This document shows positions 15,535-60,603 of a stretch of 64,000 bases of DNA, piece by piece. The position numbers were made by a program, and so were the translations under genes. How positions within the stretch are numbered: position 1 is the first letter of the stretch; each line of letters opens with the position of its first letter. Under the pieces are notes generated by a model. The model saw nothing but the letters and a program-made list of their open reading frames with translations, was not told the DNA's origin and did not search any database. The stretch comes from Escherichia coli (GTDB lineage Bacteria; Pseudomonadota; Gammaproteobacteria; Enterobacterales; Enterobacteriaceae): NCBI RefSeq assembly GCF_044324875.1, contig NZ_CP172186.1; one strand, given 5' to 3'.

Positions 15535-15555
15535 TGCCACTGCTGGATAAGCTGC

Positions 15556-41581: not shown

Positions 41582-42064
41582 CGTCTGGGCAATGATCCGG
41601 AAGTCTGTTACATCCCCAACGGGGGCGCAGTGGCAAACCTGCAGGTCGCCACGTCAGAAAGCTGGCGCGACAAACAGACGGGGGAGATGCGGGAGCAGAC
41701 GGAATGGCACCGCGTGGTGCTGTTCGGCAAGCTCGCGGAAGTGGCTGGTGAATATCTGCGCAAGGGCGCGCAGGTCTACATCGAGGGGCAACTCCGTACC
41801 CGTAGCTGGGAGGATAACGGTATCACCCGTTACGTCACTGAAATTCTTGTTAAGACCACGGGCACCATGCAGATGCTGGGGAGTGCACCACAGCAGAACG
41901 CTCAGGCGCAACCGAAGCCTCAGCAGAATGGGCAGCCACAGAGTGCTGACGCGACGAAAAAAGGTGGCGCGAAAACGAAAGGCCGTGGACGTAAGGCCGC
42001 GCAGCCGGAGCCTCAGCAGCCGTCTGAACCCGCGTATGACTTCGATGACGACATTCCGTTCTAA
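41582..42064 (+). CDS. ssb: ssb exon 2 (plasmid single-stranded DNA-binding protein, codons 14-173)
   Basis: [35 protein letters not shown]...DDDIPF (acidic C-terminal tail). Confidence 0.85.
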
Positions 42065-42416: not shown

Positions 42417-44375
42417 ATGTCAGTTACAGAGTCTAAGACAAAAACGGAGCGTAAATCCAGCCGTAAACCTGCAAAAACGCAGGAAACCGTCCTGTCAGCC
42501 CTGCTGGCGCAGACGGAGGAAGTGAGCGTGCCGCTGGCCTCGCTGATTAAATCACCGCTGAATGTGCGCACGGTGCCGTATTCTGCGGAGTCTGTCAGCG
42601 AACTGGCGGACTCCATTAAAGGTGTCGGCCTGTTACAGAATCTGGTTGTTCATGCCCTGCCAGGTGACCGTTACGGTGTCGCCGCAGGCGGTCGCCGACT
42701 GGCTGCACTCAACATGCTGGCAGAGCGTGGCATCCTTACGGCTGACTGGCCTGTACGCGTGAAGGTTATTCCGCAGGAGCTGGCGACTGCCGCATCAATG
42801 ACTGAAAACGGTCATCGTCGGGATATGCACCCTGCTGAACAGATCGCCGGATTCCGCGCAATGGCGCAGGAAGGCAAAACACCTGAGCAGACTGGCGACC
42901 TGCTGGGCTATTCACCCCGCCACGTCCAGCGAATGCTGAAACTGGCAGACCTTGCACCCGTCATCCTTGATGCGCTGGCAGAAGACCGCATCACCACCGA
43001 ACACTGTCAGGCGCTGGCGCTGGAGAACGACACCGCGCGTCAGGTGCAGGTGTTTGAAGCCGCCTGCCAGTCAGGATGGGGCGGTAAACCGGATGTGCGG
43101 GTTATCCGCAACCTGATTACCGAAAGTGAAGTGGCGGTGGCGGGGAACAGTAAATTCCGCTTCGTGGGGGCTGATGCCTTCTCGCCAGACGAACTGCGCA
43201 CCGATTTGTTCAGCGATGACGGGGACGGTTATGTCGACCGCGTGGCGCTCGATGCCGCCCTGCTGGAAAAACTCCAGGCTGTCGCTGAACACCTTCGGGA
43301 AGCCGAAGGCTGGGAATGGTGCGCCGGGCGCATGGAGCCTGTCGGTGAGTGCCGTGAGGATGCCGGAACATACCGCTGTCTGCCGGAGCCGGAAGCGGTG
43401 CTGACGGAGGCGGAATACGAACGCCTGAACGAACTGATGACGCGTTACGACGCGCTGGAAAACCAGTGTGAGGAATCCGACCTGCTGGAAGCAGAAATGA
43501 AGCTGATGCGCTGCATGGCGAAGGTCAGAGCGTGGACGCCGGAGATACGTGCCGGAAGCGGTGTGGTGGTGTCCTGGCGTTATGGCAACGTATGTGTCCA
43601 GCGTGGTGTGCAGTTGCGCAGTGAAGATGACGCGACTGACGACGCTGACCGCACGGAACAGGTGCAGGAGAAAGCGTCAGTGGAGGAAATCAGCCTGCCG
43701 TTGCTGACGAAAATGTCCTCAGAGCGCACGCTGGCAGTCCAGGCGGCACTCATGCAGCAGCCGGACAAATCCCTGACACTGCTGGCATGGACGCTCTGCC
43801 TGAATGTGTTTGGCAGCGGGGCGTACAGTAAACCAGCACAAATCAGCCTGGAATGTGAACATTATTCGCTGACCAGCGATGCGCCATCGGGGAAGGAAGG
43901 TGCCGCATTCATGGCGCTGATGGCAGAAAAATCCCGTCTTGCAGCCCTGCTGCCGGAGGGATGGTCACGGGACATGACGACATTCCTGTCCCTCAGTCAG
44001 GAGGTGCTGTTATCCCTGCTCAGTTTCTGCACCGCATGCAGCCTTAACGGTGTCCAGACCCGTGAGTGTGGTCACACGTCACGCAGTCCGCTTGACTCGC
44101 TGGAAATCGCTATCGGATTCCACATGCGCGACTGGTGGCAGCCGACAAAAGCAAACTTCTTCGGACACCTGAAAAAGCCACAAATTATCGCAGCCCTGAA
44201 TGAGGCCGGACTGTCCGGTGCCGCACGGGACGCGGAGAAGATGAAGAAAGGTGATGCGGCTGAACATGCAGAGCACCATATGAAAGACAACCGCTGGGTT
44301 CCAGGCTGGATGTGTGCACCACATCCACAGACAGATGCCACTGAACGCACCGATAACCTGACTGATGCCGCCTGA
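42417..44375 (+). CDS. ParB-like nuclease-domain protein of plasmid leading regions
   Basis: 652 aa; N-terminal ParB/Srx-like region (..GLLQNLVVHALPGDRYGVAAGGRRLAAL..). Confidence 0.7.
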   Translation: MSVTESKTKTERKSSRKPAKTQETVLSALLAQTEEVSVPLASLIKSPLNVRTVPYSAESVSELADSIKGVGLLQNLVVHALPGDRYGVAAGGRRLAALNMLAERGILTADWPVRVKVIPQELATAASMTENGHRRDMHPAEQIAGFRAMAQEGKTPEQTGDLLGYSPRHVQRMLKLADLAPVILDALAEDRITTEHCQALALENDTARQVQVFEAACQSGWGGKPDVRVIRNLITESEVAVAGNSKFRFVGADAFSPDELRTDLFSDDGDGYVDRVALDAALLEKLQAVAEHLREAEGWEWCAGRMEPVGECREDAGTYRCLPEPEAVLTEAEYERLNELMTRYDALENQCEESDLLEAEMKLMRCMAKVRAWTPEIRAGSGVVVSWRYGNVCVQRGVQLRSEDDATDDADRTEQVQEKASVEEISLPLLTKMSSERTLAVQAALMQQPDKSLTLLAWTLCLNVFGSGAYSKPAQISLECEHYSLTSDAPSGKEGAAFMALMAEKSRLAALLPEGWSRDMTTFLSLSQEVLLSLLSFCTACSLNGVQTRECGHTSRSPLDSLEIAIGFHMRDWWQPTKANFFGHLKKPQIIAALNEAGLSGAARDAEKMKKGDAAEHAEHHMKDNRWVPGWMCAPHPQTDATERTDNLTDAA

Positions 44376-47508: not shown

Positions 47509-48225
47509 AGCGCACGTTCACGGGCACTGATCCCCCTCAGCGCAGAACAACAGGCCGCTATGCAGGCTGTGGCTGTCACCGAACAACGTCGTCGTCAGGG
47601 ACGCACACTTTCAGCATGGCCTTATGCCACCGCTTTCTTTCGCTGCCTGAATGGCAGTCGCCGGATTTCGCTGACCGATCTCCGCTTTTTTGCCCCTGCG
47701 CTGACGAAGGAGGAATTTCATGGCAACCGTCTCCTGTGGCTGGCTGCAGTGGACAAACTGATTGAAAGTTTTGGTGAAGTCTGTGTTCTTCCCCTGCCAT
47801 CCGATGCGGGGCATCGTTTGTTCCCGTCCGTTCCTTTTCGTGAAGGTGAGCGGCGTCGTCAGAAAACCACGCTGACAGAGCAGAAATACAGCCGCCAGCG
47901 GGAACGTGAGGCAGAACGACGGGAACGGGAATACCAGACATGTTTTGCTCAGGCGCAGATTGACCTTGCGTTTCATACTCCCGCCACGGTCGGAAGCTGG
48001 TTGTCCCGCTGGTCTGGTGTTGTTGAGGAGCATGATCTGGAAACGATTTTCTGGGGGTGGTGCGGGCGTTTTCCATCACTGTCATCATTTGACCGGTTTT
48101 TCTGGCAGGAGGAACCACTCTGGCGGTTGATTTTTGAAGCCGGTGAGGCCGGTCGTGGTGCACCGGTACAGGTACGTGCACTTGAGCAGTGGATGATCCC
48201 GAACAAGCTGGAGAACGTAATATGA
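47509..48225 (+). pseudogene. psiA: psiA, disrupted after codon 3 by the IS21-family element (an N-truncated product from ATG 47560 remains possible)
   Basis: ATG AGC GCA at 44861-44869 then IS; frame resumes SARSLAIPLSAEQQAAMQAV... Confidence 0.75.
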
Positions 48226-48818
48226 TGAAATCAGACGAAAAATACCAGGTTCCCGCGTGGATGCGACCTCTGTTGCCGTTGCTCTGCAACACCGGGGAGA
48301 ACGATCCGGAAGAACTGCTGAATGATACAGAAACCACTGCCAGTGCGAATGTTGTCCGTTATGTGCTGATAGTTGCTGTGCGGTCGCAGGTTGATCTGCT
48401 GCAGCTTCTGTACAGGAAAGGGCTGTTGCGCACAGAGATACCAGGTGGCTTTTCACCGGAAGAAGCGCAGGAACTCCTGGATAATCTGGTGCGCAGCCAT
48501 ATCAGCAGGGCGCTGTCGGGTGAGCGAATGGCAGCCCGTGACAGGAATGCCGATCTGGCCTGGATTCGACAGCAACTGGTCGATGCCGCCTGGTTTGTCC
48601 GTGCCACACTGGAAGCGCATGGGATGAGCGTCGGAAATGAGAGTCCCCCTGCTCAGCCGGAGACAATGCCGGACATACAGACACGGGAACTGGTGATGTT
48701 GATCAAGCGACTGGCATCATCGCTGAAAGCGGTGAAACCGGACAGTTGTGTGGTGCGTGAAGCGCAGGACTGGCTGCGCGACAGAAAACTTGTGAGCATC
48801 ACGGATGTTCTTCGGTGA
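48222..48818 (+). CDS. Hypothetical leading-region protein
   Basis: 198 aa from ATG 48222. Confidence 0.55.
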   Translation: MMKSDEKYQVPAWMRPLLPLLCNTGENDPEELLNDTETTASANVVRYVLIVAVRSQVDLLQLLYRKGLLRTEIPGGFSPEEAQELLDNLVRSHISRALSGERMAARDRNADLAWIRQQLVDAAWFVRATLEAHGMSVGNESPPAQPETMPDIQTRELVMLIKRLASSLKAVKPDSCVVREAQDWLRDRKLVSITDVLR

Positions 48819-48926
48819 ACCAGTGGAGGTATGCTTGAGGAGCAGGGACATGCCGGCCATGATCGTTTCGTTCCAGGGGTGGTCTGGAGATCATGCGGCG
48901 TGTCCTCTGCACTCGCCGGAATAAGG

Positions 48927-49265
48927 ACGTCGCCGCCGGCTCCGCTTTTACCCGGCCATGCGGGGCATGGCCTTGTGGGTTTTCAGCTCTGTGGCCTCAG
49001 CGTCGTGTGCGGGCTGTGCCGTGCCTCCATCGTAGCCGGGCTTCTGCGGGCGGGATGCAAGGTAAGATGAACCGCTGCGGTCACCCGGTCCCTCCTTCCC
49101 GTCTGCCGTGATTTTCCGGTCGTTCACCCGCTCAGATTTCGCGGTCTCACCCTCCAACTCCCGTCAGCCGTGCGCGTCGGGCTGCGGCTTTCCTTGCGCC
49201 CTTGCATCCCTGCAGGCCCGGCAAAGATGGAGGCACGGCACCGCCCGGTGTCGCAGAACATGTGA
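48927..49265 (+). repeat. GC-rich direct repeat family A, copy 2 (upstream of ardA)
   Basis: Near-identical to 36691-37030. Confidence 0.6.
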
Positions 49266-49282
49266 CTATGGAGGATTCGGGA

Positions 49283-49783
49283 ATGTCTGTTGTTGCACCT
49301 GCTGTATACGTTGGAACCTGGCACAAATATAACTGCGGAAGCATCGCCGGCCGCTGGTTTGACCTGACCACGTTTGATGATGAACGCGATTTTTTCGCCG
49401 CCTGCCGTGCCCTTCACCAGGATGAAACCGATCCGGAACTGATGTTTCAGGATTATGAGGGTTTCCCGGGGAATATGGCCTCTGAATGTCATATCAACTG
49501 GGCCTGGGTTGAAGGCTTCCGCCGGGCACGGGATGAAGGCTGCGAAGAGGCTTATCGTCTCTGGGTGGATGATACCGGTGAGACGGATTTTGACAGCTTC
49601 CGCGATGCCTGGTGGGGCGAGGCTGACAGTGAGGAGGCTTTTGCGGTTGAGTTCGTCAGTGATACCGGCCTGCTGGCTGACGTGCCGGAGACGGTGGCGC
49701 TCTATTTTGACTATGAGGCGTATGCGCGGGATTTATTCCTGGACTCCTTCACCTTTATTGACGGTCATGTGTTCCGTCGGTGA
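49283..49783 (+). CDS. ardA: ArdA antirestriction protein (DNA mimic)
   Basis: MSVVAPAVYVGTWHKYNCGSIAGRWFDL...; 166 aa, very acidic; GGAGGA RBS. Confidence 0.85.
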   Translation: MSVVAPAVYVGTWHKYNCGSIAGRWFDLTTFDDERDFFAACRALHQDETDPELMFQDYEGFPGNMASECHINWAWVEGFRRARDEGCEEAYRLWVDDTGETDFDSFRDAWWGEADSEEAFAVEFVSDTGLLADVPETVALYFDYEAYARDLFLDSFTFIDGHVFRR

Positions 49784-49959
49784 TTTACTCCCCCGCTCCG
49801 GCGGGGGTATGGCCTGCCGGGCCGCCGGAAAACCCTGGCAGGCTTACGCCTGCCTGAAATACAGGAGGGCCGCGCCTGCGGCGCTGCCCTTCCTGCCCGT
49901 CATGGTGTGAGGCATTTTTCTGTTTTGTCGTTTCTGTTGTTCTGATGCCCGGAGGCGGG

Positions 49960-50500
49960 GACACCCTTCGGCTCCCGGCTGCCTGGCGGCATCCGGTCGT
50001 CGGCCCGACTCCGACAGGCAGCTGCTGGCGCACCCGCCAGTCTCCGCCGAACCCGCTGGCGCGGTTTCGGGCTGCCGCTACGGTCCGATGTCTGAAAAAC
50101 CAGGCCTGCAGCGACCGTTCCGGTCGCGCCGCCCCTGTCGCGCCGGAAACGGCGCTCCCTGCACACCTGACGGTGTGTAAGGCCACTGCGCCTGATGGCG
50201 CAGTCAACCCTTCCGCCGCCACCCCTGCGGCCTGTTTCCCGCTGTGGACTTTCCGGGGGCTGAAGCGGCCACAACACGGGGCAGCCGTCCAGGGGAGAGA
50301 TGTACCAGCCACAAAACTTTTTGCCGCAGGCGTCAAAAACTTTTGCGTCTGCCCCCGGACAACTGCCCCGTGCCGTGGCAGTCGCTGCCCCATCGGAAAG
50401 GTCCACTGCGGGGAGAAACCCCGAAGAAGTGGACGGCAGAAGGGGCTTTCGCCCCTCCGGGGGAGCAACCGGTCGGCCCGGCGACCTGATTCAGCAGAAG
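49960..50500 (+). repeat. GC-rich direct repeat family B, copy 2
   Basis: See 38300-38870. Confidence 0.6.
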
Positions 50501-50511
50501 GAGACGTTTTC

Positions 50512-50946
50512 ATGACAGTCAGCAGCACGATTTCCGTTTTTTGCCGAGACGGGGTGTTCCGTACCGTTTACTGCCACCTGCACGGTGAGCCGACCTGGAA
50601 CGGTCGCATCCTGCATACCCACTATGCCACCGGTCAGCTGGCCGAAGCCCTGGTTGAACACGGAGATATCCGTTGCCTCGGTCCCCGTTGCGACAAACCC
50701 GCCGGGCATACGCTTCAGAACCCGGTGGACGGTGTGACGGCTTATTACGGACGTGACAGTGGTTTCCGGATGGACAGTGAGGCGCGTGAGTACCGTTCTT
50801 TCAGGGAGGCTATTGCCACTGAAAGCACTGAAGAGGTGCGCTTCCATTATGTGTTCATCGACGGCTACTGGAAGGTGATGTACCGCACGCCGGAAGGCTG
50901 GAAGATGAAAGCGCTCGCGCTGGCACTGCGTCGCTGTCCGGAATGA
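50512..50946 (+). CDS. Hypothetical leading-region protein
   Basis: 144 aa from ATG 50512 (MTVSSTISVF...), AGGAGA RBS; the tracked 333-aa ORF upstream part lies in repeat B. Confidence 0.6.
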   Translation: MTVSSTISVFCRDGVFRTVYCHLHGEPTWNGRILHTHYATGQLAEALVEHGDIRCLGPRCDKPAGHTLQNPVDGVTAYYGRDSGFRMDSEAREYRSFREAIATESTEEVRFHYVFIDGYWKVMYRTPEGWKMKALALALRRCPE

Positions 50947-51037
50947 AAAAAAGCAGGGCGATAAACCCTGCCTCTCTCCGCCGCTGCTTCCCGGCCAGGA
51001 AGAGCGGCAGTCATCAACAACATAAGGAGAAATATTT

Positions 51038-51304
51038 GTGAGACCATCAATTATCTTCGCAACCGCCGAGTATGTAAAGCGTCTGCGTGAAGAGTGCCTG
51101 CGGGAGAATAAACCCCTGCACCGCCATACCCGCTTCAGACGTCAGGAGCTGGCACAGGATGAGATTAACCCGGACGTCCTGGCGATGAGCGGTCATATCG
51201 CCAGACGCTGCAGTGAGCAGAAGCGGGTGCGTATCCCCGCCATGAAAGTCAGCGAATGGGGCCACCTGCTCCGCGCGCTTGAAATTGAACGGGTCTGTCA
51301 CTGA
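51038..51304 (+). CDS. Hypothetical protein
   Basis: 88 aa; GGAG RBS. Confidence 0.5.
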   Translation: MRPSIIFATAEYVKRLREECLRENKPLHRHTRFRRQELAQDEINPDVLAMSGHIARRCSEQKRVRIPAMKVSEWGHLLRALEIERVCH

Positions 51305-51368
51305 TTAACCCTTGCCGTCTGCCTGTGCAGGCGGCAGGATACGTTCAGACATCTCACCAGGAGGAACC

Positions 51369-52247
51369 GTGAGTAAGAAGAAAAACACCACAACGCCCAC
51401 GCCGCATGATGCCGCGTTCCGGTCGTTCCTGGCGAATCCCGACGTTGCCAGGGATTTTCTGGAGTTGCATCTTCCTGCGGAGTACCGGCAGTTGTGCGAC
51501 CTGTCCACCCTGAAGCTGGAACCCGCCACCTTTGTTGAGCCGGACCTGCATCAGTACGCCAGCGATATCCTCTGGAGTGTGAAAACCACCGGGGGTGAAG
51601 ACGGCTATGTTTATACGCTCATCGAGCACCAGAGCACCGAAAATCTGTACATGCCTTTTCGCATGTTACGTTACAGTGTGGCGGCGATGCAGAGACATCT
51701 GGAGCAGCACAAAACGTTGCCACTGGTCATTCCGGTGCTGTTCTATCACGGTGAGCGCAGCCCGTACCCGTACAGCATGAACTGGCTGGACTGTTTTGAG
51801 AATCCGGCACTTGCGGCTAAAATATACACAAAGCCGTTTCCGCTGGTTGATATCACTGTCGTTGATGACAATGAAATCATGAACCATCGCCGGATGGCCG
51901 CACTGACGCTGCTGATGAAGCATATCCGCCATCGTGACATGATGGAGCTGCTGGACAAACTCCCGCAGGTCATGGTGGAAATTTCAGACGAGCAGGTGCG
52001 TGTTCTGATTCATTACATCGTTAACGCAGGGGACACTGTATCACCGGAATTTATGCGGGCGCTGGCCGAGCGCCTGCCGCAGCATGAGGATAAACTGATG
52101 ACAATCGCAGAACGTCTTGAGCAGAAAGGTGCGCTTGAAAAAGCCCTGGCCATTGCGCGTCAGCTTCAGAAAATGGGGATGACACCTGAGCAGATTAAGC
52201 AGGCCACCGGACTTTCCGAAGCTGAACTGAAAAAAGTCATTCACTGA
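51369..52247 (+). CDS. Rpn/YhgA-like recombination-promoting nuclease family protein
   Basis: GTG 51369 after AGGAGG; N-terminal HDAAFRSFLANPDVARDFL...; about 292 aa. Confidence 0.65.
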   Translation: MSKKKNTTTPTPHDAAFRSFLANPDVARDFLELHLPAEYRQLCDLSTLKLEPATFVEPDLHQYASDILWSVKTTGGEDGYVYTLIEHQSTENLYMPFRMLRYSVAAMQRHLEQHKTLPLVIPVLFYHGERSPYPYSMNWLDCFENPALAAKIYTKPFPLVDITVVDDNEIMNHRRMAALTLLMKHIRHRDMMELLDKLPQVMVEISDEQVRVLIHYIVNAGDTVSPEFMRALAERLPQHEDKLMTIAERLEQKGALEKALAIARQLQKMGMTPEQIKQATGLSEAELKKVIH

Positions 52248-52308
52248 TGAGAGCATCACAGCCCGGCAAAATGCCGGGCTTTTTGCCAGCAGGAGCAGAG
52301 CAAACAGC

Positions 52309-52527
52309 ATGACGATTGCAGAACGTCTTATACAGAAAGGTTTCGACGAGGGTTTTAAAGAAGGTTTTAAACAAGGTTTTAAACAAGGTTTTAAACAAGG
52401 AGCTCTTGAAGTGGCGCGGGAAATAGCCTGCCGGCTTCGGGATATAGGCTGGTCGCCGGAACGGATTCAGGAGGTCACGGGACTTTCCGGTGAAGAACTG
52501 AAAAAGCTGTTTCCTGATGAGCAGTAG
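52309..52527 (+). CDS. Small ORF resembling the C-terminal tail of the Rpn-like protein, with GFK(E/Q)GFKQ tandem repeats
   Basis: MTIAERLIQKG...GLSGEELKK parallels ...MTIAERLEQKG...GLSEAELKK of the upstream gene. Confidence 0.4.
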   Translation: MTIAERLIQKGFDEGFKEGFKQGFKQGFKQGALEVAREIACRLRDIGWSPERIQEVTGLSGEELKKLFPDEQ

Positions 52528-52557
52528 CCTGGCATTCAGCCAGGCTGTGAATCACGC

Positions 52558-52809
52558 TCACACATCCTCTGCCGTTTCCCCCAGTTCATTTTCCAGTCGC
52601 CTGATGATATCTGCCTTACGCATCCCCTGCATGTGAGGCAGCAGGTCACGGACTGAAAGTGCCTGGGTGGTCCTCCAGACGGTGACGTCCACCTGTTCCG
52701 CATTTTCCCAGGCGTGCCATGTTCTCTGCGTCACGCCAAATTCTCTGGCCGCTTTTTCGCGTGACCAGAGCATGCTTTTTCGCCAGATTCGCAGTTCCCA
52801 TCCGGTCAT
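52558..52809 (-). CDS. HTH (XRE-like) DNA-binding protein
   Basis: 83 aa; AAREFGVTQRTWHAWE HTH-like segment; twin palindromes upstream. Confidence 0.5.
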   Translation of the reverse strand: MTGWELRIWRKSMLWSREKAAREFGVTQRTWHAWENAEQVDVTVWRTTQALSVRDLLPHMQGMRKADIIRRLENELGETAEDV

Positions 52810-52823
52810 AAAACACCTTTGAA

Positions 52824-52909
52824 AAAGTGAAAAAACTTCACTTTATTTTATCATCACAATTGCCAAATCAGCGCGATAAATAAGTGTAAAAAAGTGAAGA
52901 AATTTCACT
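52824..52909. promoter_or_regulatory. Two palindromic operator-like sites AAGTGAA-N5-TTCACTT upstream of the HTH gene
   Basis: 52824-52842 AAGTGAAAAAACTTCACTT and 52891-52909 AAGTGAAGAAATTTCACTT. Confidence 0.5.
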
Positions 52910-53019
52910 TTTTTTGGTTGTAAATGTCGTGCGGTTTTCTCTGTTTTCACCTGTGCGGGAGTGGTGTGCCAGTGACCACCACATGCCATTGTTGTGCCGT
53001 CGTTTTTCTTCAGTCGCGC

Positions 53020-53370
53020 CGGATGCGGCGCTCCCTGCACACCTTACGGTGTGTAAGGCCACTGCGCCTGATGGCGCAGCTGCCTCTGCCTGTCTGCCGC
53101 CGCACTGCGGCCTGTTCTCCGCAGACGGACTTTCCGGGGGTACATACACGACCACATCCCGTTTCAGTCGTCCAGGGGAGAGATGTACCAGCCACAAAAC
53201 TTTTTGCCGCAGGCGTCAAAAACTTTTGCGTCTGCCCCCGGACAACTGCCCCGTGACGTGGTGAGCGTCCCCCGTCGGAAAGGTCCACTGCGGGGAAATC
53301 CCCGAAGACCCGGACGGCAGAAGGAGCTTCGCTCCTCCGGGAAATGACCTGGCTGACCCGGCAGTCGTGA
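53020..53370 (+). repeat. GC-rich direct repeat family B, copy 3 (partial)
   Basis: See 38300-38870. Confidence 0.55.
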
Positions 53371-53388
53371 CGATGAGGAGACAATGTG

Positions 53389-54237
53389 ATGAATCAGACT
53401 TTACCCACTGCTGACCTGAATACTGCCGGCACGACAGATGTTATTCCGTCTGTGGCTATCGACCGCATCATCGCGCAGCGTAACGAAGGTATTGCACTGT
53501 TCATGCAGGCGATGGAATGCCTGGCGACAGCGCGCAGGATTCTGCTCGATGCTTCCGGTGACATTTTTCTCTACGGGTTTGAAGACTGCGTGACTGACTC
53601 CGTTCGATGCATGGATAAACCGGAAGAAGCGAAAAGGAATATCACCCGTCTTGCCGACCGGAAAATCTGGGACCGCCTGATGACAGATACGGGCATGTAC
53701 ACCTTCATGAGTTCATGCCAGCGTGATGAGTGGAACAGCCAGCTGATGAGCGACACCTGTCCTGAAATCACCCTGGACAATGTACTGGCAACATTCCGCC
53801 ATCTTAATGCCAGCAAGATGCAGACATTTGAACAGGGACTGATTGATGTCTACCGGAAATTGTCATGGGATTACAGAACCAATAATCCCTGCCGTCTGGG
53901 CAAGAAAATCATTATTGAAAACCTGCTGTACCGCTGGAGTAACGGGCGTGTGACGCTGGACTGCAGCAGACGGGAGGCACTGGATGACCTGGTACGTCCG
54001 TTTTATCTGCTGGAGGGGCGCAACGTTCCTGACTTCAGGAACAGCATCGGGGCGCAGTATGGTGAATTTCTCAGGAACGGCGACAATGTCGGTAAGTTGT
54101 TAGAAGGGGAATATTTTACGGTGCGTGGCTACCAGAAAGGGACCGTACACATTGTCTTTAAGCGTTCTGACCTTGTTGAAAAACTGAATGATATTATTGC
54201 ACGGCATTATCCTGGTGCATTGCCGCCACGAGTCTGA
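53389..54237 (+). CDS. Hypothetical leading-region protein
   Basis: 282 aa from ATG 53389, GAGGAG RBS. Confidence 0.6.
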   Translation: MNQTLPTADLNTAGTTDVIPSVAIDRIIAQRNEGIALFMQAMECLATARRILLDASGDIFLYGFEDCVTDSVRCMDKPEEAKRNITRLADRKIWDRLMTDTGMYTFMSSCQRDEWNSQLMSDTCPEITLDNVLATFRHLNASKMQTFEQGLIDVYRKLSWDYRTNNPCRLGKKIIIENLLYRWSNGRVTLDCSRREALDDLVRPFYLLEGRNVPDFRNSIGAQYGEFLRNGDNVGKLLEGEYFTVRGYQKGTVHIVFKRSDLVEKLNDIIARHYPGALPPRV

Positions 54238-54322
54238 TTAAACAGAAAAGCCCTGGTATTTATGCCGGGGCTTTTTTTTCTGTAATCATCATAATCTCAG
54301 AACACGATGTGACATTGTCACA

Positions 54323-54664
54323 TCAATTGTTGTTCATATCGATGCCATCTTTCCTGCCTGAATCTGTCTTTTTAGGTGCTGTTTTAGAGGAAGAACGGCG
54401 GGATGTTTTTTTCGATTCTGCTTCCCGAATAATGTCACGAAGTGCCTTCTCTCCTACTTCATACCCTGCATTTTTGAGCGTGTCACGAATATCTGCCAGT
54501 GTATAACCCTTTGTCCTTACCAGGACAATAATGTCATCACGAATGGCATCAAGAAAATCACGCAATGTTTTCCGTTGAGCGGTGAGATCTGGCAATTCCG
54601 ATAAAGCAGCTTTTGCCAGCTGGATGTCATCATCTGAGTAAAATTTTTTAGAAGCCATTGGCAC
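54323..54664 (-). CDS. Hypothetical protein (basic C-terminus)
   Basis: 113 aa ORF. Confidence 0.5.
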   Translation of the reverse strand: MPMASKKFYSDDDIQLAKAALSELPDLTAQRKTLRDFLDAIRDDIIVLVRTKGYTLADIRDTLKNAGYEVGEKALRDIIREAESKKTSRRSSSKTAPKKTDSGRKDGIDMNNN

Positions 54665-54699
54665 TTTCTCTCCGTTTAATCTTGAAGCCTGATTTTATC

Positions 54700-54890
54700 A
54701 TCAAAAACTGACTCCTGGCAGGGCTGCGCCCTGCCTCTGCCGTCTGCATAAGACTATGATGCACAAAAATAACAGGCTATAATGGCATGAAAAACGGGAC
54801 AGGATGTGTAATCGTATAACCGCGCACGCACGGCTATACGATTACCACCTGGTCAGGGCTTAGCCCCGACACCCCGGTAAGGAGCAGACC
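54700..54890. other. oriT-like region upstream of nikA
   Basis: 11-bp inverted repeat GTAATCGTATA / TATACGATTAC (54808-54845) immediately upstream of nikA-nikB. Confidence 0.5.
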
Positions 54891-55223
54891 ATGAGTGAGA
54901 AGAAAACCCGAAGTGGCAGTGAGAAACGGCAAAAGAATGTCCTCATTGCTGTTCGTTTTTCACCAGAAGAGGCTGAGATTGTTAAAGAAAAGGCAGAAAA
55001 AAACGGACTGACAGTTTCAACTCTGATAAGAAAAACTGTGCTGGGAAAACAGATAAATGCCCGCATTGATGAAGATTTTTTGAAAGAGCTGATGCGTCTT
55101 GGTCGCCTGCAGAAGCATCTGTTTGTGGAAGGAAAACGCACGGGAGATAAAGAGTATGCAGAGGTTCTCGTTGCTATTACAGAACTTGCTAATACTCTGC
55201 GAAGAGATTTAATGGGACGCTGA
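54891..55223 (+). CDS. nikA: NikA relaxosome accessory protein (RHH)
   Basis: 110 aa directly upstream of the relaxase gene. Confidence 0.8.
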   Translation: MSEKKTRSGSEKRQKNVLIAVRFSPEEAEIVKEKAEKNGLTVSTLIRKTVLGKQINARIDEDFLKELMRLGRLQKHLFVEGKRTGDKEYAEVLVAITELANTLRRDLMGR

Positions 55224-55234
55224 GATAATCGCTG

Positions 55235-57937
55235 ATGAATGCCATCATTCCGAAAAAAAGACGCGACGGAAAGTCTTCTTTTGAAGACCTGATTGCGTAC
55301 ACCTCAGTGCGGGATGATGTGCCGGAAGATGAACTCAGACCAGACACGGAAGTGAAAGGTGAGGTTCCGCACCGGAATCGCTTCAGACGTCTTGTTGATT
55401 ATGCAACACGTCTGCGTAATGAAAAATTTGTTTCCCTGATTGATGTGATGAAAGACGGCAGTCAGTGGGTGAATTTCTATGGTGTGACCTGCTTTCATAA
55501 CTGTTTGTCTCTTGAATCTGCGGCTGAAGAAATGCAGAAAGCAGCAGACCTTGCTTATTTTTCCAAAGATGATACAGATCCTGTTTTTCACTATATTCTC
55601 TCCTGGCCTGCGCACGAAAGTCCGCGTTCTGAGCAGCTTTTTGACTGTGTGCGTCACACCCTGAAATCCCTTGAGCTGTCAAAACATCAGTATGTGGCAG
55701 CCGTTCATACAGACACGGATAACCTGCATGTACATGTTGCAGTGAATCGTGTCCACCCTGAAACCGGCTATATCAATTGCCTTCCGTGGAGCCAGGAAAA
55801 ACTCAGCCGTGCATGTCGTGAACTTGAACTTAAGCACGGATTCGCGCCGGATAATGGCTGCTTTGTGCATGCACCCGGCAACCGTATTGTGCGCAAAACA
55901 GCGCTGGTACGTGAGCGCCGTAATGCCTGGCGACGCGGGAAAAAGCAGACGTTCAGGGAATATATTGCTCAGATGTCGATTGCCGGGCTGCGTGAAGAGC
56001 CTGCACAGGACTGGTTATCTTTGCATAAACGGCTGGCCAGCGATGGTCTGTATATCACGATGCAGGAAGGGGAACTGGTGGTGAAGGATGGCTGGGACAG
56101 AGCGCGGGAAGGTGTTGCACTCAGTTCGTTCGGACCGTCATGGACAGCTGAAAAACTGGGGCGGAAACTGGGGGAATATCAGCCTGTACCGACAGATATT
56201 TTCAGTCAGGTGGGGACACCCGGTCGTTATGATCCGGAAGCCATAAACGTTGATATCCGGCCGGAAAAAGTGGCAGAAACGGAGAGTCTGAAACAGTACG
56301 CCTGCCGTCACTTTGCTGAACGCTTACCGGCAATGGCGCGCAATGGTGAACTGAAAAGCTGCCTGGCTGTACACCGTACTCTGGCAGAGGCGGGATTATG
56401 GATGGGGATCCAGCACGGGCATCTGGTACTGCATGATGGATTTGATAAACAACAGACACCAGTACGTGCAGACAGTGTGTGGCCGTTGTTAACGCTGGAA
56501 AATATCAGAAAACTGAATGGCGGCTGGCAGTCTGTACCGAAGGATATTTTTACTCAGGTTGTACCACAAAGTCGCTTTAGTGGGCATCGAATGGATATGC
56601 ATCCGGTCAGTGATCATGAATGGCACAGAATGAGAACAGGGGCTGGCCCACAGGGGGCAATTAAGCGGGAGATTTTCTCTGACAAAGAGAGTCTGTGGGG
56701 ATATGCAGTCAGCCATTGTGCCCGTGATATTCAGTACATGATCTCTGAAGGGCGCTTTAGCTGGCAGAACTGCCATGAACTGTTTGCCCGCAGTGGACTG
56801 ATGTTACAGAAACTGCATCATGGTCTTGTGATTGTGGATGCGTTTAATCATGACCAGACACCGGTTAAAGCCAGCAGCATTCATCCGGATTTGACTTTGT
56901 CCAGAGCAGAGCCGCAGGCCGGGCCATTTGAAATTGCAGCGGCGGATATTTTCGATCGGGTGAAGCCTGAAAGCCGTTATAACCCTGATATGGCTGTCAG
57001 TGACAGTAAGGAACCCGGGTTTAAACGGGATCCTGAATTGCGCCGCCGTCGTCGTGAAACCCGTGCAGCTGCGCGGGAAGATTTGCGTGCGCGTTACCTT
57101 GCATGGAAGGAGCACTGGCGTAAACCCGATTTACGTTACGGCGAACGGTTACGGGAAGTTCATGCTGCCTGCCGCCGGCGCAAGGCGCATATCCGCGTAC
57201 AGTTCAGGGATCCGCAAGTGCGTAAGCTGCATTACCATATTGCGGAAGTGCAGCGAATGCAGGCGCTGATCAGGCTGAAGGAAAGCGTCAGGGAAGAGCG
57301 ACTGTCGCTGATGGCGGAAGGTAAGTGGTACCCGCTGTCTTACAGGCAGTGGGTGGAGCAGATGGCGGTTCAGGGGGATTCTGCTGCTGTATCTCAGTTA
57401 CGTGGATGGAATTATCGCGACAGAAGGAATGATGAGGTGCTTTTAACCACGCCTCAACGCTGTGTGGTTCTTTGTGAACCAGGCTCCACCCCGATTCACA
57501 GGGATATCGGTGGCATGGTGGCGACTTTGCAGCGTAATGGCAGTGTGCGTTTCCGTGATGCGACAACAGGAGAGTACGTCTGTACAGATTATGGTGATCG
57601 CGTTGTTTTCAGCAACAGTGCCGATAACAAAACACTGAAGAAAAGGATGGTCAGGGTGTCCAGTGTGCTTTTTGCAAGGGATCCCCGAATGGGGTTTGAG
57701 CCGGAAGGTCAGGATGCACAATTTAACCGTATGTTTGCTGATATGGTTGCGTGGAAAAACGTGCAGCGGGATGAGCGTAAGGGGCACTACAGGATAAGTC
57801 GTTCTGATGTTGATCAACTGAGGGTCAGTAGTGAAAAACGTTTTCGTGATTATCTTAAAGGGCGTGATACTGAATCACACACTTACCATCATGCAACGGA
57901 TGAAAATAAGTGGGAGCCGCCATCACCGGGGATGTAA
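55235..57937 (+). CDS. nikB: NikB-type relaxase (MOBP family)
   Basis: 900 aa; His-triad motif HTDTDNLHVHVAVNRV. Confidence 0.85.
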   Translation: MNAIIPKKRRDGKSSFEDLIAYTSVRDDVPEDELRPDTEVKGEVPHRNRFRRLVDYATRLRNEKFVSLIDVMKDGSQWVNFYGVTCFHNCLSLESAAEEMQKAADLAYFSKDDTDPVFHYILSWPAHESPRSEQLFDCVRHTLKSLELSKHQYVAAVHTDTDNLHVHVAVNRVHPETGYINCLPWSQEKLSRACRELELKHGFAPDNGCFVHAPGNRIVRKTALVRERRNAWRRGKKQTFREYIAQMSIAGLREEPAQDWLSLHKRLASDGLYITMQEGELVVKDGWDRAREGVALSSFGPSWTAEKLGRKLGEYQPVPTDIFSQVGTPGRYDPEAINVDIRPEKVAETESLKQYACRHFAERLPAMARNGELKSCLAVHRTLAEAGLWMGIQHGHLVLHDGFDKQQTPVRADSVWPLLTLENIRKLNGGWQSVPKDIFTQVVPQSRFSGHRMDMHPVSDHEWHRMRTGAGPQGAIKREIFSDKESLWGYAVSHCARDIQYMISEGRFSWQNCHELFARSGLMLQKLHHGLVIVDAFNHDQTPVKASSIHPDLTLSRAEPQAGPFEIAAADIFDRVKPESRYNPDMAVSDSKEPGFKRDPELRRRRRETRAAAREDLRARYLAWKEHWRKPDLRYGERLREVHAACRRRKAHIRVQFRDPQVRKLHYHIAEVQRMQALIRLKESVREERLSLMAEGKWYPLSYRQWVEQMAVQGDSAAVSQLRGWNYRDRRNDEVLLTTPQRCVVLCEPGSTPIHRDIGGMVATLQRNGSVRFRDATTGEYVCTDYGDRVVFSNSADNKTLKKRMVRVSSVLFARDPRMGFEPEGQDAQFNRMFADMVAWKNVQRDERKGHYRISRSDVDQLRVSSEKRFRDYLKGRDTESHTYHHATDENKWEPPSPGM

Positions 57938-58005
57938 AAATCATGTAGACAGGGTGATTAAATCACCGTAATGTGTCCTCGTTGTGTATACATTATGGGG
58001 GAGAT

Positions 58006-58254
58006 ATGCGAACACAGGTGACACTGCAAAAATGGGGCAACAGTATTGCTCTCCGGTTAACCGGAAATCTGAAAACCGTGCCGGGTTTTTCGGCAGGAGA
58101 TGTGGTTGATGTGGAAATCAGTGAGAAAGGATTGATCGTGGAAAAACCGGTGAGACCTCGTCTTACAGAGGCTGTATTGCTTGCGGGGCTGACGCCATTT
58201 TCCGCGCATGCAGATGAAGCTGCCACTCTTCTTGATAAGGAGAGTGAGTTCTGA
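58006..58254 (+). CDS. pemI: PemI/MazE-type antitoxin
   Basis: MRTQVTLQKWGNSIALRL (AbrB/SpoVT fold); 82 aa. Confidence 0.8.
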   Translation: MRTQVTLQKWGNSIALRLTGNLKTVPGFSAGDVVDVEISEKGLIVEKPVRPRLTEAVLLAGLTPFSAHADEAATLLDKESEF

Positions 58255-58598
58255 TGTTTGTTCCAAAGCGTGGTGATATTTGCTGGCTTGATTTTGAACC
58301 CCAAAAAGGAAAAGAAATTGGCAAATATCGTCCGGCATTAATCCTGTCCCATGAGCAATATAATCGTTTAACAGGGCTTGTCATATGCTGCCCTGTCAGT
58401 ACGAGTATCCGGGGCGCTCCAACAGAGGTTCCTGTTACTAATCTCGATGCACCAAGTGTGGTGGCCACAACGCTCATACAGACACTTGACTGGCGGCAAA
58501 GGCAAGTGCGTTTAATTACGGAAGCAGAAGAGGGCGTATTTGATGAGGTGCTTGAGAGAGTGATCACTCTGATTGGTGGTGAACATTTACTGAAGTGA
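58254..58598 (+). CDS. pemK: PemK/MazF-type toxin
   Basis: 114 aa MFVPKRGDICWLDFEPQKGKEIGKYRPALILS... Confidence 0.85.
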   Translation: MFVPKRGDICWLDFEPQKGKEIGKYRPALILSHEQYNRLTGLVICCPVSTSIRGAPTEVPVTNLDAPSVVATTLIQTLDWRQRQVRLITEAEEGVFDEVLERVITLIGGEHLLK

Positions 58599-58633: not shown

Positions 58634-58852
58634 TCAGAAGTGACCGTCCAGGCGGTCACCGAACTCGATAATAAAGCGGCTCATTGCCATTCGCCAGTCC
58701 TTCAACGGCATCGTCCATTTCCGGGACGCAGACTGGATTGCCAGCCACACCACTTTTTTCACCGAGTCGTCTGTCGGGAACACTTTACGCTTTTTGATCG
58801 CATGGCGGATCACGCTGTTTAGCGACTCGATGGCATTCGTCGTATAGATCAC
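58634..58852 (-). pseudogene. IS256-family transposase, C-terminal fragment
   Basis: ...NAIESLNSVIRHAIKKRKVFPTDDSVKKVVWLAI... typical mutator-family C-terminus; abuts IS629-like copy C. Confidence 0.6.
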
Positions 58853-58908
58853 TTTGAACCGCCCCGGAAATCCTGGAGACTAAACTTCCTGAGAAAGATG
58901 TAAACAGG

Positions 58909-59235
58909 ATGACTAAAAATACTCGTTTTTCCCCCGAAGTCCGTCAACGGGCAGTTCGTATGGTTCTGGAAAGCCAGGGCGAATATGACTCACAATGGGC
59001 GGCAATTTGTTCCATTGCTCCAAAGATTGGCTGTACGCCAGAGACCCTGCGTGTCTGGGTTCGCCAGCATGAGCGGGATACCGGGGGCGGTGATGGTGGG
59101 CTCACCACCGCTGAACGTCAGCGTCTGAAAGAGCTGGAACGCGAAAATCGTGAACTGCGCCGCAGTAACGATATCCTTCGCCAGGCTTCCGCTTATTTTG
59201 CGAAGGCGGAGTTCGACCGCCTCTGGAAAAAATAA
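58909..59235 (+). CDS. IS3-family transposase OrfA
   Basis: Identical to 15208-15534 product. Confidence 0.9.
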
Positions 59236-59256
59236 TGCCACTGCTGGATAAGCTGC

Positions 59257-60102
59257 GTGAGCTGCAGTGAGCTGCATATTGCCCCGTCAACGTATTACCA
59301 CTGTCAGCAACAGCAGCATCATCCTGATAAACGCAGCGCCCGTGCGCAGCGTGATGACTGGCTGAAGAAAGAGATACAGCGCGTATACGATGAAAATCAC
59401 CAGGTGTACGGTGTGCGTAAAGTCTGGCGTCAGTTGTTACGGGAAGGTATCAGAGTGGCCAGATGCACTGTGACACGTCTTATGGCGGTTATGGGTTTTG
59501 CCGGTGTTCTCCGGGGTAAAAAGGTCCGCATTACCGTCAGCCGGAAAGCCGTTGCCGCAGGCGACCGCGTAAACCGTCATTTCGTGGCAGAACGTCCTGA
59601 CCAGCTGTGGGTGGCTGATTTTACTTACGTCAGCACATGGCAGGGCTTTGTTTATGTGGCGTTCATCATTGATGTGTTTGCCGGATACATCGTGGGATGG
59701 CGGGTCTCCTCGTCCATGGAAACGACATTCGTGCTGGATGCACTGGAGCAGGCGTTGTGGGCCCGTCGTCCGTCTGGCACCATCCATCACAGCGATAAAG
59801 GCTCTCAGTATGTATCGCTGGCCTACACGCAGCGGCTTAAGGAAGTCGGATTACTGGCATCAACAGGGAGCACAGGCGACTCGTATGACAACGCGATGGC
59901 GGAGAGCATCAATGGTCTTTACAAGGCGGAGGTAATACACCGTAAGAGCTGGAAAAACCGGACAGAAGTGGAGCTGGCTACACTCACGTGGGTGGACTGG
60001 TATAACAATCGACGATTGCTGGAAAGGCTGGGCCATACTCCCCCGGCAGAAGCAGAAAAAGCTTATTATGCTTCCATCGGAAACAATGATCTGGCAGCCT
60101 GA
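59257..60102 (+). CDS. IS3-family transposase OrfB
   Basis: 281 aa. Confidence 0.85.
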   Translation: MSCSELHIAPSTYYHCQQQQHHPDKRSARAQRDDWLKKEIQRVYDENHQVYGVRKVWRQLLREGIRVARCTVTRLMAVMGFAGVLRGKKVRITVSRKAVAAGDRVNRHFVAERPDQLWVADFTYVSTWQGFVYVAFIIDVFAGYIVGWRVSSSMETTFVLDALEQALWARRPSGTIHHSDKGSQYVSLAYTQRLKEVGLLASTGSTGDSYDNAMAESINGLYKAEVIHRKSWKNRTEVELATLTWVDWYNNRRLLERLGHTPPAEAEKAYYASIGNNDLAA

Positions 60103-60141
60103 GTTCACAGACAAAACATTCTCCAGGAAACCCGGGGCGGT

Positions 60142-60603
60142 TCAGTTTTGCCATTCTACAACCTGCTCCATCACGGCATCGGTAACCTTTGATATCAGTG
60201 CCGGTGAAACATCTGCGTCATACAGTTCTTTGAACGCAGCGGCTATCTCACGGGTGGTCATCCCTTTGGCATACAACGAGAGGATCTGGTTATCCATCCC
60301 GGTAATACGGGTCTGATTTTTCTTTACCAGTTGTGGTTCGAAGGTACCGTCACGATCGCGCGGAGTACGCAGTTCCAGTGGACCGTCGCCTGTGATAACG
60401 GTCTTTGTGGAATAACCGTTGCGGGAGTTAGCTCCTGGTCTGGACTGATTTTTCTCATACCCAAGATGGTGTGTCATCTCTGCATTGAGAGCGGCTTCAA
60501 CGCTGAGCTTTTTCAGCAGCCGATCAAACTGACTGAGGTCTTCAGGGGTTTTGAGGTTTTTGGCCAGTTCGTTAGCCAGAGCCTGTAACTGTTTTTCGTC
60601 CAT
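60142..60603 (-). pseudogene. IS256-family transposase, N-terminal fragment
   Basis: MDEKQLQALANELAKNLKTPEDL...RNGYSTKTV...PRDRDGTFEPQLV...SLYAKGMTTREI mutator-family N-terminus; ends at the IS629-like boundary. Confidence 0.7.

Follow-up and report, generated by a model that had tools for sequence, protein, structure and literature searches.

A gene for an Rpn nuclease and, immediately downstream of it, a small gene related to its C-terminal tail were identified in a 64,000-nucleotide stretch of Escherichia coli DNA (contig NZ_CP172186.1, hereafter the window). Taken as a whole, the locus is probably an RpnLS toxin-antitoxin or defence gene accompanied by a free-standing paralog of its antitoxin (RpnSs), with the small protein failing to neutralise its neighbour and its gene serving as an alternative tail cassette. 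The assignment of the small ORF to the RpnSs type is very probable; the functional part of this interpretation, considered alone, is slightly favoured. The combination of rpn, an intragenic antitoxin and a free-standing, repeat-bearing copy was published in 2023 and is already known.

The rpn gene and its intragenic antitoxin

The rpn gene occupies positions 51369-52247 on the + strand, begins with GTG at 51369, and encodes a protein of 292 amino acids (RpnL) with an N-terminal YhgA-like PD-(D/E)XK nuclease domain followed by a C-terminal tail. Based on profile matches it is a predicted nuclease of the Rpn family: residues 11-207 matched PF04754 (E=1.1e-78) and TIGR01784 scored 168.7 bits, the cut-off being 52.1. 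The original prediction of an Rpn-like nuclease gene was thus borne out for a full-length Rpn/YhgA-like protein, and the coordinates given with it for rpn and for the small ORF were correct. A homologue carries the RefSeq label "Rpn family recombination-promoting nuclease". The RpnA equivalog model NF007361 scored 331 bits, under its cut-off of 583 for RpnA orthologs, which indicates that the window protein is a family member of another subfamily than RpnA.

Genes of this family give rise to two products, the toxic nuclease RpnL and the antitoxin RpnS, the latter translated from an internal start (Zhong et al. 2023, PNAS, PMC10400941); an internal promoter is drawn in Fig. 1A of the same paper. 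In the window an ORF of 49 amino acids (MTIAERLEQKG...KKVIH) lies in frame within rpn at 52098-52247 (+ strand). A Shine-Dalgarno sequence, GAGGA (52086-52090, + strand), was read from the sequence 7 nt 5' of the internal start codon (iTIS), and it is kept in 16/16 loci, the divergent GIQQ allele included. Residues 244-288 of Rpn aligned with residues 1-45 of RpnA-S (PDB 7th0, chain A; E=1.5e-4), so that M244 is the counterpart of the first residue of the crystal chain. From these features, internal initiation at M244 can yield a 49-residue RpnS belonging to the window plasmid itself. Its tail carries no four-residue repeat, while the tails at this position in 16 loci fall into two allele types, with 0-6 GRQE/GRME units or 3-5 units of the GIQQ type. 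A consensus scan detected a promoter-like site inside rpn (TTGAGA-16 nt-TAAAAT, 51796-51823, + strand, 10/12 matches), which is kept in 14 of the 16 loci and is a candidate internal promoter for an RpnS transcript.

The small downstream ORF

The small ORF (52309-52527, + strand, ATG start at 52309) follows rpn after a gap of 61 nt on the same strand and would encode a free-standing RpnS paralog (RpnSs-type) of 72 amino acids. Alignment of the two proteins, as had been proposed with the original prediction, was carried out by BLASTP and revealed homology between Rpn 244-290 and residues 1-67 of the small protein (29/67 identities, 43%; one 20-residue gap; E=6e-12). The small protein was also matched to tail positions 223-273 of TIGR01784 (E=2.3e-5). 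Both this similarity and the match of Rpn to its family are far above chance. Mirroring of the Rpn tail, which had been claimed for the last 45 residues, therefore stands with its extent corrected to the last 49 (M244-H292). The small ORF opens with MTIAERL, as does Rpn from M244, and the two tails agree at 10 of their first 11 residues. At the DNA level the tails agree at 107/149 positions (72%) outside a single 60-nt insertion, and both open with a 33-nt direct repeat (52098-52130 and 52309-52341, + strand) that is 85% identical between the copies.

The predicted insertion of a tetrapeptide repeat was likewise confirmed. The 20-residue insert (residues 11-30; 52339-52398, + strand) consists of five G-F-x-x units, GFDE-GFKE-GFKQ-GFKQ-GFKQ, each encoded by 12 nt and forming a variable repeat in the predicted helix 1. 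Tandem Repeats Finder reported a period of 12 nt, 4.2 copies, 97% matches and the consensus GGTTTTAAACAA. An ORF on the opposite strand (52237-52398, 53 amino acids, with FKTL repeats) was rejected as the mirror image of this repeat. Longer annotated forms of the small protein (85/89 amino acids, starting MRTTKPGKMPGFF...) were also rejected; the extension overlaps the terminator described below and is out of frame in the window because the T-run there differs by 1 nt.

The small ORF was 52-59% identical to three tail alleles found at the same locus (alignment A1, percentages alone) and 35-49% identical to other RpnS-like proteins, apart from a hybrid-tail protein (P0132) at 58%. Since the closest relatives are the tails of the same locus, local duplication or replacement of a tail is indicated, and the interpretation of the small ORF as a diverged duplicate of its own upstream gene's tail is directly supported by the sequence comparison. 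It agrees with the published view that small genes of this kind originate from the very rpn gene they follow (PMC10400941). The proposal that the small ORF might be a "modular regulatory tail" was about right: the Rpn tail is a separately translated antitoxin domain of which free-standing copies are documented (PMC10400941).

Close homologues of the small protein numbered 335, and among the 120 matches listed their lengths ranged from 50 to 111 amino acids. It bears the name "RpnC/YadD family protein" in more recent RefSeq records. Neither the small ORF nor two homologues matched DUF4351 (PF14261), under which Pfam places some free-standing RpnS genes, at E values up to 1 and 10. A precomputed PF27070.1 tag is attached to many homologues; it was not returned by the Pfam scan. 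The AF2 model of the small protein (mean pLDDT 69.7) is all-helical, with helices at residues 3-27, 32-45, 50-57 and 61-67. The top PDB match of this model in Foldseek was RpnA-S (7th0), at a non-significant E of 1.2 and TM values of 0.45/0.69, and the BLASTP alignment with RpnA-S was limited to the first 11 residues. Searching PDB sequences with the small ORF retrieved only proteins resembling repeats or HTH motifs (IcmE/DotG and designed repeat proteins), none with a single stretch of significant similarity, and they were set aside as evidence.

Transcription, translation and genomic context

A hairpin resembling an intrinsic terminator, with a 9-bp GC-rich stem, a 3-nt loop and a following U-run, was found between the two genes (52260-52284, + strand). 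Folding of the RNA from 52240 to 52320 gave -28.7 kcal/mol (z=-3.4). The hairpin is kept in 15 loci, four of which show a compensatory change from A-U to G-C, and the T-run after it varies from 4 to 7 nt. It was missed by the consensus scan because of the scan's rule for T-runs and was recovered by folding and by comparison of the 15 loci. The sequence AGGAG (52291-52295, + strand), kept in all loci with a separate small ORF, lies 13 nt 5' of the ATG, a long spacing for a Shine-Dalgarno sequence. Beyond the internal site in rpn, the consensus scan detected no promoter-like sequence ahead of the small ORF. Judged from these signals, the putative terminator, the spacing of AGGAG and the negative promoter scan count against expression of the small ORF.

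Within the plasmid the module belongs to the leading region and faces oriT/nikAB; the small ORF is 2-3.5 kb from oriT and has the orientation of early genes. Three copies of an element similar to Frpo/ssi single-stranded DNA promoters are present in the window (38450-38812, 50100-50461 and 53013-53341). Frpo of F and ssi1-3 of ColIb-P9 are class 1 ssDNA promoters (PMC12672017). Identity to two leading-region sites of the F plasmid, one of them just upstream of ssb, is 70-86%, and the ssDNA fold of the element gave z-scores of -8.0 and -10.4. Based upon this similarity, the copy at 50100-50461 (+ strand), which forms a long imperfect hairpin, is the probable early promoter of an operon orf-orf-rpn. 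A scan of 48000-56000 against Rfam gave no match.

Distribution, repeat variation and selection

The locus was found in 2,037 matching plasmids of the IncI/K/B/O type, in 1,980 of which 80% or more of the 1.3-kb query was covered. It occurred in 1,340 of 5,426 complete E. coli genomes (about a quarter), almost always on plasmids; 15 of the 1,554 DNA matches in E. coli genomes were chromosomal. Absence of the small ORF from all related plasmids, named at the outset as one part of a refuting outcome, was not seen: all 15 sampled relatives have the small ORF or its tail type.

Repeat number varies between plasmids in both tails, and does so independently, as the counts directly support. The small ORF carries 0-6 copies in relatives, and in 15/15 loci with both tails its number is unequal to that of the upstream tail, by up to 6 units. 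The core of the small protein measured 60, 64, 68, 72 or 76 amino acids among the database homologues listed, and 52 and 56 in two plasmid loci. Natural fusions of the nuclease domain to the downstream tail have arisen by recombination at the shared 33-nt 5' segment, again with direct support. In one such locus (L014) the nuclease domain is joined to the tail type of the small ORF, here with 3 repeats, the crossover lying inside a shared 12-nt block, GCAGAACGTCTT; fused variants made up 1 of 60 evenly spaced records. In another locus (L015) the small ORF is interrupted by IS21.

In 15 sampled copies of the small ORF neither frameshifts nor stops were found, and the frame is intact across about 10-18% DNA divergence, while the spacer between rpn and the small ORF has gained indels of 1 nt. 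Among the 120 homologues listed only a few have frameshifted ends. The pN/pS of the small ORF is about 0.4-0.6; pooled over its C-terminal 37 codons it was 0.45, against 0.43 for the nuclease domain. Changes in the first 10 codons were 4 synonymous and 1 nonsynonymous (p=0.008). The C-terminal 37 codons showed 7 synonymous and 12 nonsynonymous changes, which on their own are not significantly below neutrality (p=0.21).

Function of the small protein

The four-residue repeats determine the binding partner of the antitoxin (Zhong et al., PMC10400941). As published for RpnA, RpnB and RpnC, pairing of RpnS with RpnL requires that the tails match in sequence and in number of repeats; RpnL is blocked only when the numbers are equal, one additional four-residue repeat abolishes neutralisation, and RpnA-S and RpnB-S give no cross-protection (PMC10400941). 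Because the small protein differs from the adjacent tail both in sequence (43% identity) and in repeats (five against none), it most probably fails to neutralise its RpnL neighbour, a conclusion extrapolated from the experiments on those three systems. Some cross-binding may nevertheless occur, given the near-identity of the first 11 residues. The small protein would pair with itself or with an RpnL bearing the same tail, and the five G-F-x-x units would lengthen its first helix. Low-level expression by read-through of the terminator is probable, as part of a leading-region operon served by the Frpo/ssi-type promoter. The main evolutionary role of the small ORF may be that of an alternative tail cassette: one deletion between the 33-nt repeats would switch the tail of the toxin and its intragenic antitoxin together.

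Four other interpretations were considered. The small protein might act in trans on the adjacent RpnL, as a second antitoxin or a modulator that provides extra buffering of the nuclease, for example when a new host is entered and the ssDNA promoter drives the operon strongly. The two tails share, besides 10 of their first 11 residues, 54-59% of the residues after the repeats, the small ORF is kept in more than 95% of the plasmids with the locus, it sits in a leading-region operon behind the Frpo-like element, and its chromosomal counterpart, YpaA/RpnESs, is synthesised (PMC10400941). We nevertheless consider this unlikely in view of the published loss of neutralisation upon addition of one repeat and lack of cross-protection between RpnA-S and RpnB-S, the unequal repeat numbers in every one of the 15 sampled loci, and the terminator separating the genes. 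That same terminator, conserved upstream of the small ORF, together with the poorly spaced Shine-Dalgarno sequence and the want of a recognisable promoter, would suit a non-functional leftover of tail replacement, passively carried and without meaningful translation, as would the statistically weak selection on its C-terminal part and its loss by fusion (L014) or IS21 interruption (L015) without obvious consequence. Such a leftover is rather less likely still: its frame would not be expected to stay intact in all sampled copies beside a spacer that gains indels, its pN/pS would not resemble that of the nuclease domain, and its N-terminal codons would not change almost only synonymously. The few frameshifted ends among the 120 homologues listed and the precedent of an expressed RpnESs also speak against it.

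An anti-defence role appears improbable. Here the small protein would be an orphan antitoxin, expressed early and directed against Rpn nucleases that match it in tail type and repeat number and are encoded by the recipient or by resident rival plasmids. Its distance from oriT, its early-gene orientation and its place behind the Frpo/ssi-like element would be fitting, as would the independent variation of its repeat number relative to the RpnL encoded beside it. Leading regions are enriched in orphan antitoxins, for which a role against toxin-antitoxin systems of hosts or competitors has been suggested (PMC11541004). However, no plausible target was found, chromosomal copies being restricted to the 15 matches given above. 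The nearest full-length Rpn proteins in a representative search were about 36-44% identical in the tail, RpnL with a matching tail type was seen only as rare fusions in the same plasmid family, and the upstream terminator argues against strong early expression. The original prediction had also offered the small ORF as a remnant of a second rpn paralog. Duplication of rpn genes in tandem is known, and the fusion in L014 does place the tail type of the small ORF on a nuclease domain, but a 3' remnant of a tandem gene whose nuclease domain was deleted is very improbable and finds no support at this locus. The gap, about 61 nt in all loci, contains the terminator hairpin and nothing left of a nuclease domain; at the DNA level the two copies resemble each other from the internal start codon onward, the junction in L014 is explained by recombination between the 33-nt repeats, and the published derivation of downstream small genes from their own upstream gene points the same way (PMC10400941). 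A non-neutralising small protein whose gene would act as an alternative tail cassette remains the slightly favoured reading.

Comparison with known systems

Downstream RpnSs genes have been described on chromosomes and plasmids, among them YpaA (RpnESs) after rpnE and RpnCSs after rpnC (PMC10400941). Like the chromosomal examples, the window gene is a separate small ORF directly after rpn on the same strand, is homologous to RpnS, and has as its first residue the counterpart of the internal start. As in RpnSs proteins, a four-residue repeat containing one hydrophobic residue together with charged residues or Gly begins about 10 residues past the Met (here at residue 11, inside the span of 8-20 residues taken for RpnSs), and its copy number varies between strains. 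The gene can be lost when the N-terminal domain becomes fused to the downstream tail, as published for rpnSs (PMC10400941). Unlike the chromosomal genes, the window small ORF sits on a plasmid, within the leading region for conjugative transfer; its divergence from the upstream tail is greater (43% identity in the BLAST alignment), and its repeat unit is GF[DK][EQK] rather than the GR[QM]E or GIQQ of upstream tails in related loci. A conserved terminator separates it from rpn, and its protein is predicted from sequence.

The intragenic antitoxin, with a conserved Shine-Dalgarno sequence before the internal start, has the architecture of RpnA-S (7th0) and of the phage-defence pair RpnP2 L/S. 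The window rpn is plasmid-encoded, as is that of RpnP2, and differs from RpnA in falling below the equivalog cut-off (331 against 583 bits). With the orphan antitoxins of leading regions (Samuel et al. 2024, PMC11541004) the small ORF shares its antitoxin-type character, its proximity to oriT and its setting in an island of early genes with Frpo-type promoters; unlike them, it has a related toxin gene directly upstream. Zhong et al. (PMC10400941) drew an analogy to the TAEL repeat in the specificity subunit of EcoR124I/II, where the number of a four-residue (12-nt) helical repeat also alters partner or target specificity. The protein families are unrelated, and the TAEL repeat spaces the DNA recognition sequence whereas the Rpn repeat sets the length of the dimerisation helix.

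The locus mainly confirms that this arrangement can be spotted from sequence alone. What is added here is its presence in a plasmid backbone that is among the commonest in E. coli and Salmonella, its leading-region position downstream of an Frpo/ssi-type promoter, the independent and never-matching repeat numbers of the two tails, and the natural tail-swap fusions. If the anti-defence role were true, the independent expansion and contraction of the repeat would record an arms race of plasmid against plasmid or plasmid against host. The locus is a convenient natural system for studying the role of downstream RpnS copies and the expansion of the 12-nt repeat.

The rpn gene and its duplicated tail

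The gene rpn (51369-52247, plus strand, GTG start) encodes a 292-aa protein which was identified as a full-length Rpn/YhgA-like family member by comparison to PF04754 (E=1.1e-78) and TIGR01784 (169 bits, cut-off 52). Since it scored only 331 bits against the RpnA equivalog model (cut-off 583), the profile comparisons assign it to the family, not to RpnA itself. The small ORF (52309-52527, plus strand, ATG start, 72 aa) begins 61 nt 3' of rpn. The original prediction, that it mirrors the Rpn tail with a tetrapeptide insert, was borne out when the two proteins were aligned. BLASTP paired residues 1-67 of the small ORF with Rpn residues 244-290 (29/67 identical, E=6e-12), leaving a single 20-residue gap which corresponds to GFDE-GFKE-GFKQ-GFKQ-GFKQ in the small ORF; the mirrored part is 49 residues long, not 45 as claimed. 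The coding sequence of the insert is a tandem array with a 12-nt period (4.2 copies, 97% matches). The DNA of the two tails is 72% identical outside one 60-nt insertion, and a 33-nt direct repeat lies at the 5' ends of both (52098-52130 and 52309-52341).

In the genes-within-genes arrangement of rpn the full-length product, RpnL, is a toxic DNA endonuclease, and its cognate antitoxin, RpnS, is the C-terminal tail made separately via an internal start site (Zhong et al. 2023, PNAS, PMC10400941). RpnS is a three-helix bundle which dimerises via its long first helix; tail sequence and repeat number set the specificity, RpnL being neutralised only by RpnS of equal repeat number. Free-standing downstream copies (RpnSs) are known as ypaA (RpnESs) after rpnE and RpnCSs after rpnC, and originate from their own upstream gene (Zhong et al. 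2023, PMC10400941).

At the level of sequence, the window locus fits this scheme point by point. The window Rpn aligns at M244 with the first residue of the RpnA-S crystal chain (PDB 7th0; E=1.5e-4), and the internal start ATG has GAGGA 7 nt upstream, kept in all 16 loci compared (the window and 15 related plasmid loci, L001-L015). Like an RpnSs, the small ORF opens with the same MTIAERL as the internal tail, its repeat starts at residue 11, inside the published range of 8-20 (PMC10400941), and its repeat unit combines a single hydrophobic residue with Gly or charged residues. It is very probably an RpnSs-type gene.

Coding capacity and expression signals

Three observations favour a real gene. 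The small-ORF frame was unbroken in 15/15 sampled copies, including L015, where only the extreme 3' end is changed, being broken beside an IS21; the 61-nt spacer directly upstream carries 1-nt indels in a T-run among the same loci. Pooled pN/pS was 0.45 for the 37 post-repeat codons versus 0.43 for the nuclease domain. Of the 5 changes in the first 10 codons, 4 were synonymous and 1 was nonsynonymous (p=0.008). Weaker evidence came from the post-repeat part alone, with 7 and 12, respectively, for which constraint was not significant (p=0.21).

The expression signals likewise speak against a real gene, or weakly for it. An AGGAG is conserved 13 nt from the ATG. A GC-rich hairpin followed by a U-run (52260-52284) is conserved between rpn and the small ORF, and in four loci an A-U pair in it has become G-C by compensatory change; the surrounding 81-nt segment folds at -28.7 kcal/mol (z=-3.4). 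From the internal rpn site (51796-51823) to the small ORF a promoter scan found no promoter-like site, and expression of this ORF, if any, is probably via terminator read-through. The 85/89-aa forms of the protein in databases were rejected as annotation artefacts, the extension crossing the terminator and being out of frame in the window.

An AlphaFold2 model (30-sequence alignment; moderate confidence, pLDDT 69.7) was all-helical, with helices at 3-27, 32-45, 50-57 and 61-67. Its best PDB match was RpnA-S, which was not significant (E=1.2).

Distribution and repeat variation

The 1.3-kb rpn/small-ORF region had matches in 2,037 plasmid records (1,980 with at least 80% coverage), mostly conjugative plasmids from Escherichia, Salmonella, Shigella and Klebsiella. 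The sampled loci were mainly of IncI1/I-gamma/K/B/O/Z types with a MOBP relaxase. The small ORF alone matched 1,340 of 5,426 complete E. coli genomes, at 1,539 plasmid and 15 chromosomal places.

Both tails were read in each of the 15 relatives retrieved. The own tail of rpn is of two allele types, A (...EQKG[GRQE/GRME]n ALEKALAIA..., n = 0-6) and B (...KQE[GIQQ/GVQQ]n ALQKAREIA..., n = 3-5), and the downstream ORF is always of a third, C (...IQK[GF(D/K)(E/Q/K)]n ALEVAREIA..., n = 0-6). Own tail and downstream ORF, in that order, were A0/C5 in the window and L001, A0/C4 in L002, A0/C6 in L003, A6/C2 in L004, A1/C2 in L005 and L008, A3/C4 in L006, A2/C3 in L007, A2/C4 in L009, A1/C0 in L010, B3/C4 in L011, B5/C4 in L012, B5/C1 in L013 and A3/C2 in L015. 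The two numbers vary independently of each other, and were equal in 0/15 loci with both. Core lengths of 60, 64, 68, 72 and 76 aa occurred among the 120 protein homologues listed.

The leading region

The rpn locus is in the conjugative leading region. Based on the MobC-like (54323-54664, minus strand), NikA-like ribbon-helix-helix (54891-55223) and 900-aa NikB-type relaxase (55235-57937) genes, oriT is probably at about 54665-54890 (54.7-54.9 kb). Both rpn and the small ORF are oriented toward this site; by this placement of oriT the locus is 2-3.5 kb into the leading region.

A ~330-nt element is present in three direct copies (38450-38812, 50100-50461 and 53013-53341), with 80-85% identity among themselves. 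They share 70-86% identity with two leading-region sites of the F plasmid, of which one immediately precedes ssb, and fold as long ssDNA hairpins (z-scores -8 to -10). These copies are likely to be Frpo/ssi class 1 single-strand promoters, the type that drives leading-region operons of IncI1 and F plasmids in zygotic induction (PMC12672017; PMC11541004). Copies 2 and 3 flank the rpn/small ORF/HTH module. Since copy 2 lies upstream of a plus-strand run of 50515-50946, 51038-51304 and rpn, the module would be expressed early after transfer. The 143-aa and 88-aa ORFs of this run, between the element and rpn, gave no Pfam match and are probably co-transcribed with rpn.

Several other features were observed. 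A 633-aa ORF (39534-41435, plus strand), whose translation resembles a group II intron reverse transcriptase/maturase, has the first Frpo-like element on one side and ssb (41630-42064) on the other, and may part the early promoter from the gene that usually comes first; a ParB-like gene is at 42417-44375. An HTH_31/XRE-type regulator gene (83 aa, 52558-52809, minus strand) is convergent with the small ORF, their stop codons 30 nt apart, and upstream of it (52811-52915) a pair of AT-rich palindromic repeats (AAAAAGTGAA..TTCACTTT) is operator-like in appearance. The closest plasmids (e.g. L001, NZ_CP025872.1; 99.8% identity over rpn) are ETEC plasmids with the heat-stable enterotoxin gene sta2, and are without ~655 bp of the window (52733-53387, compared with L001), a stretch that takes in the third Frpo-like element as well as the 5' part of the HTH gene. 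Just after the relaxase gene an overlapping plus-strand pair (57973-58254 and 58254-58598) resembles, in translation, a MazE/PemI-type antitoxin and MazF/PemK-type toxin. A ~1.1-1.3-kb sequence is present in three copies of mixed orientation (1953-3078, 15154-16443 and 58847-60145), 91-94% identical to one L001 stretch; since an IS3-like orfA begins at 58909, it is probably an insertion sequence.

Origin and possible role of the small ORF

What the comparisons establish is how the locus is built, which sequences are homologous, that the repeat numbers vary independently, that the locus lies in the leading region and that a fusion occurs naturally. The fusion is L014 (plasmid pN583), in which the small ORF is missing as a separate gene and a type C tail follows the nuclease domain directly, with the crossover within a 12-nt block (GCAGAACGTCTT) common to both 33-nt repeats. 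This is the fusion route mentioned by Zhong et al. 2023 (PMC10400941), and the L014 sequence shows that a downstream copy can take the place of the resident tail in a single step. In the homologue P0076 the upstream RpnS tail reads through into the small ORF, the stop codon being lost, and P0132 is a free-standing tail in which type A-like repeats are mixed with a type C C-terminus (…GLSGAELKKLFAD); the two suggest recombination among tail types.

The original prediction also allowed for a remnant of a second rpn paralog. The small ORF is 52-59% identical (aligned columns) to own-locus tail alleles and 35-49% to other RpnS-like proteins, except the hybrid-tail P0132 (58%), which argues that a tail was duplicated or replaced locally, and against an origin from a second rpn gene. 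The 61-nt spacer has no trace of, nor room for, a second nuclease domain, and the paralog explanation was not upheld. An inert remnant is less likely; it would agree with the post-repeat codons taken alone, and has to be set against the intact frame and the constraint on the first 10 codons. Also less likely, the small protein may serve the adjacent RpnL as a second antitoxin, or be an anti-defence orphan antitoxin, for which a position in the leading region would be suitable. Because its sequence and helix length are not those of the co-resident tail (5 repeats versus 0 in the window), it would not be expected to neutralise the adjacent RpnL; pairing would be expected with itself or with an RpnL carrying the same tail. 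This functional reading, with the small ORF as an alternative tail cassette, is considered to lie just on the probable side.

The kind of system, including free-standing downstream copies, its plasmid occurrence, repeat variation and fusion/loss, is already published, and the small ORF already has a RefSeq name ("RpnC/YadD family protein" in newer records). The details added are incremental: three tail types within one locus, repeat numbers never matching in 15 loci, the located crossover of a natural fusion, and a locus behind an Frpo-like element and beside oriT. The clearest consequence of the small ORF would be as a tail cassette. A single deletion between the 33-nt repeats would exchange the tail of the toxin and, with it, the intragenic antitoxin, so that the two would stay matched while their specificity changed.
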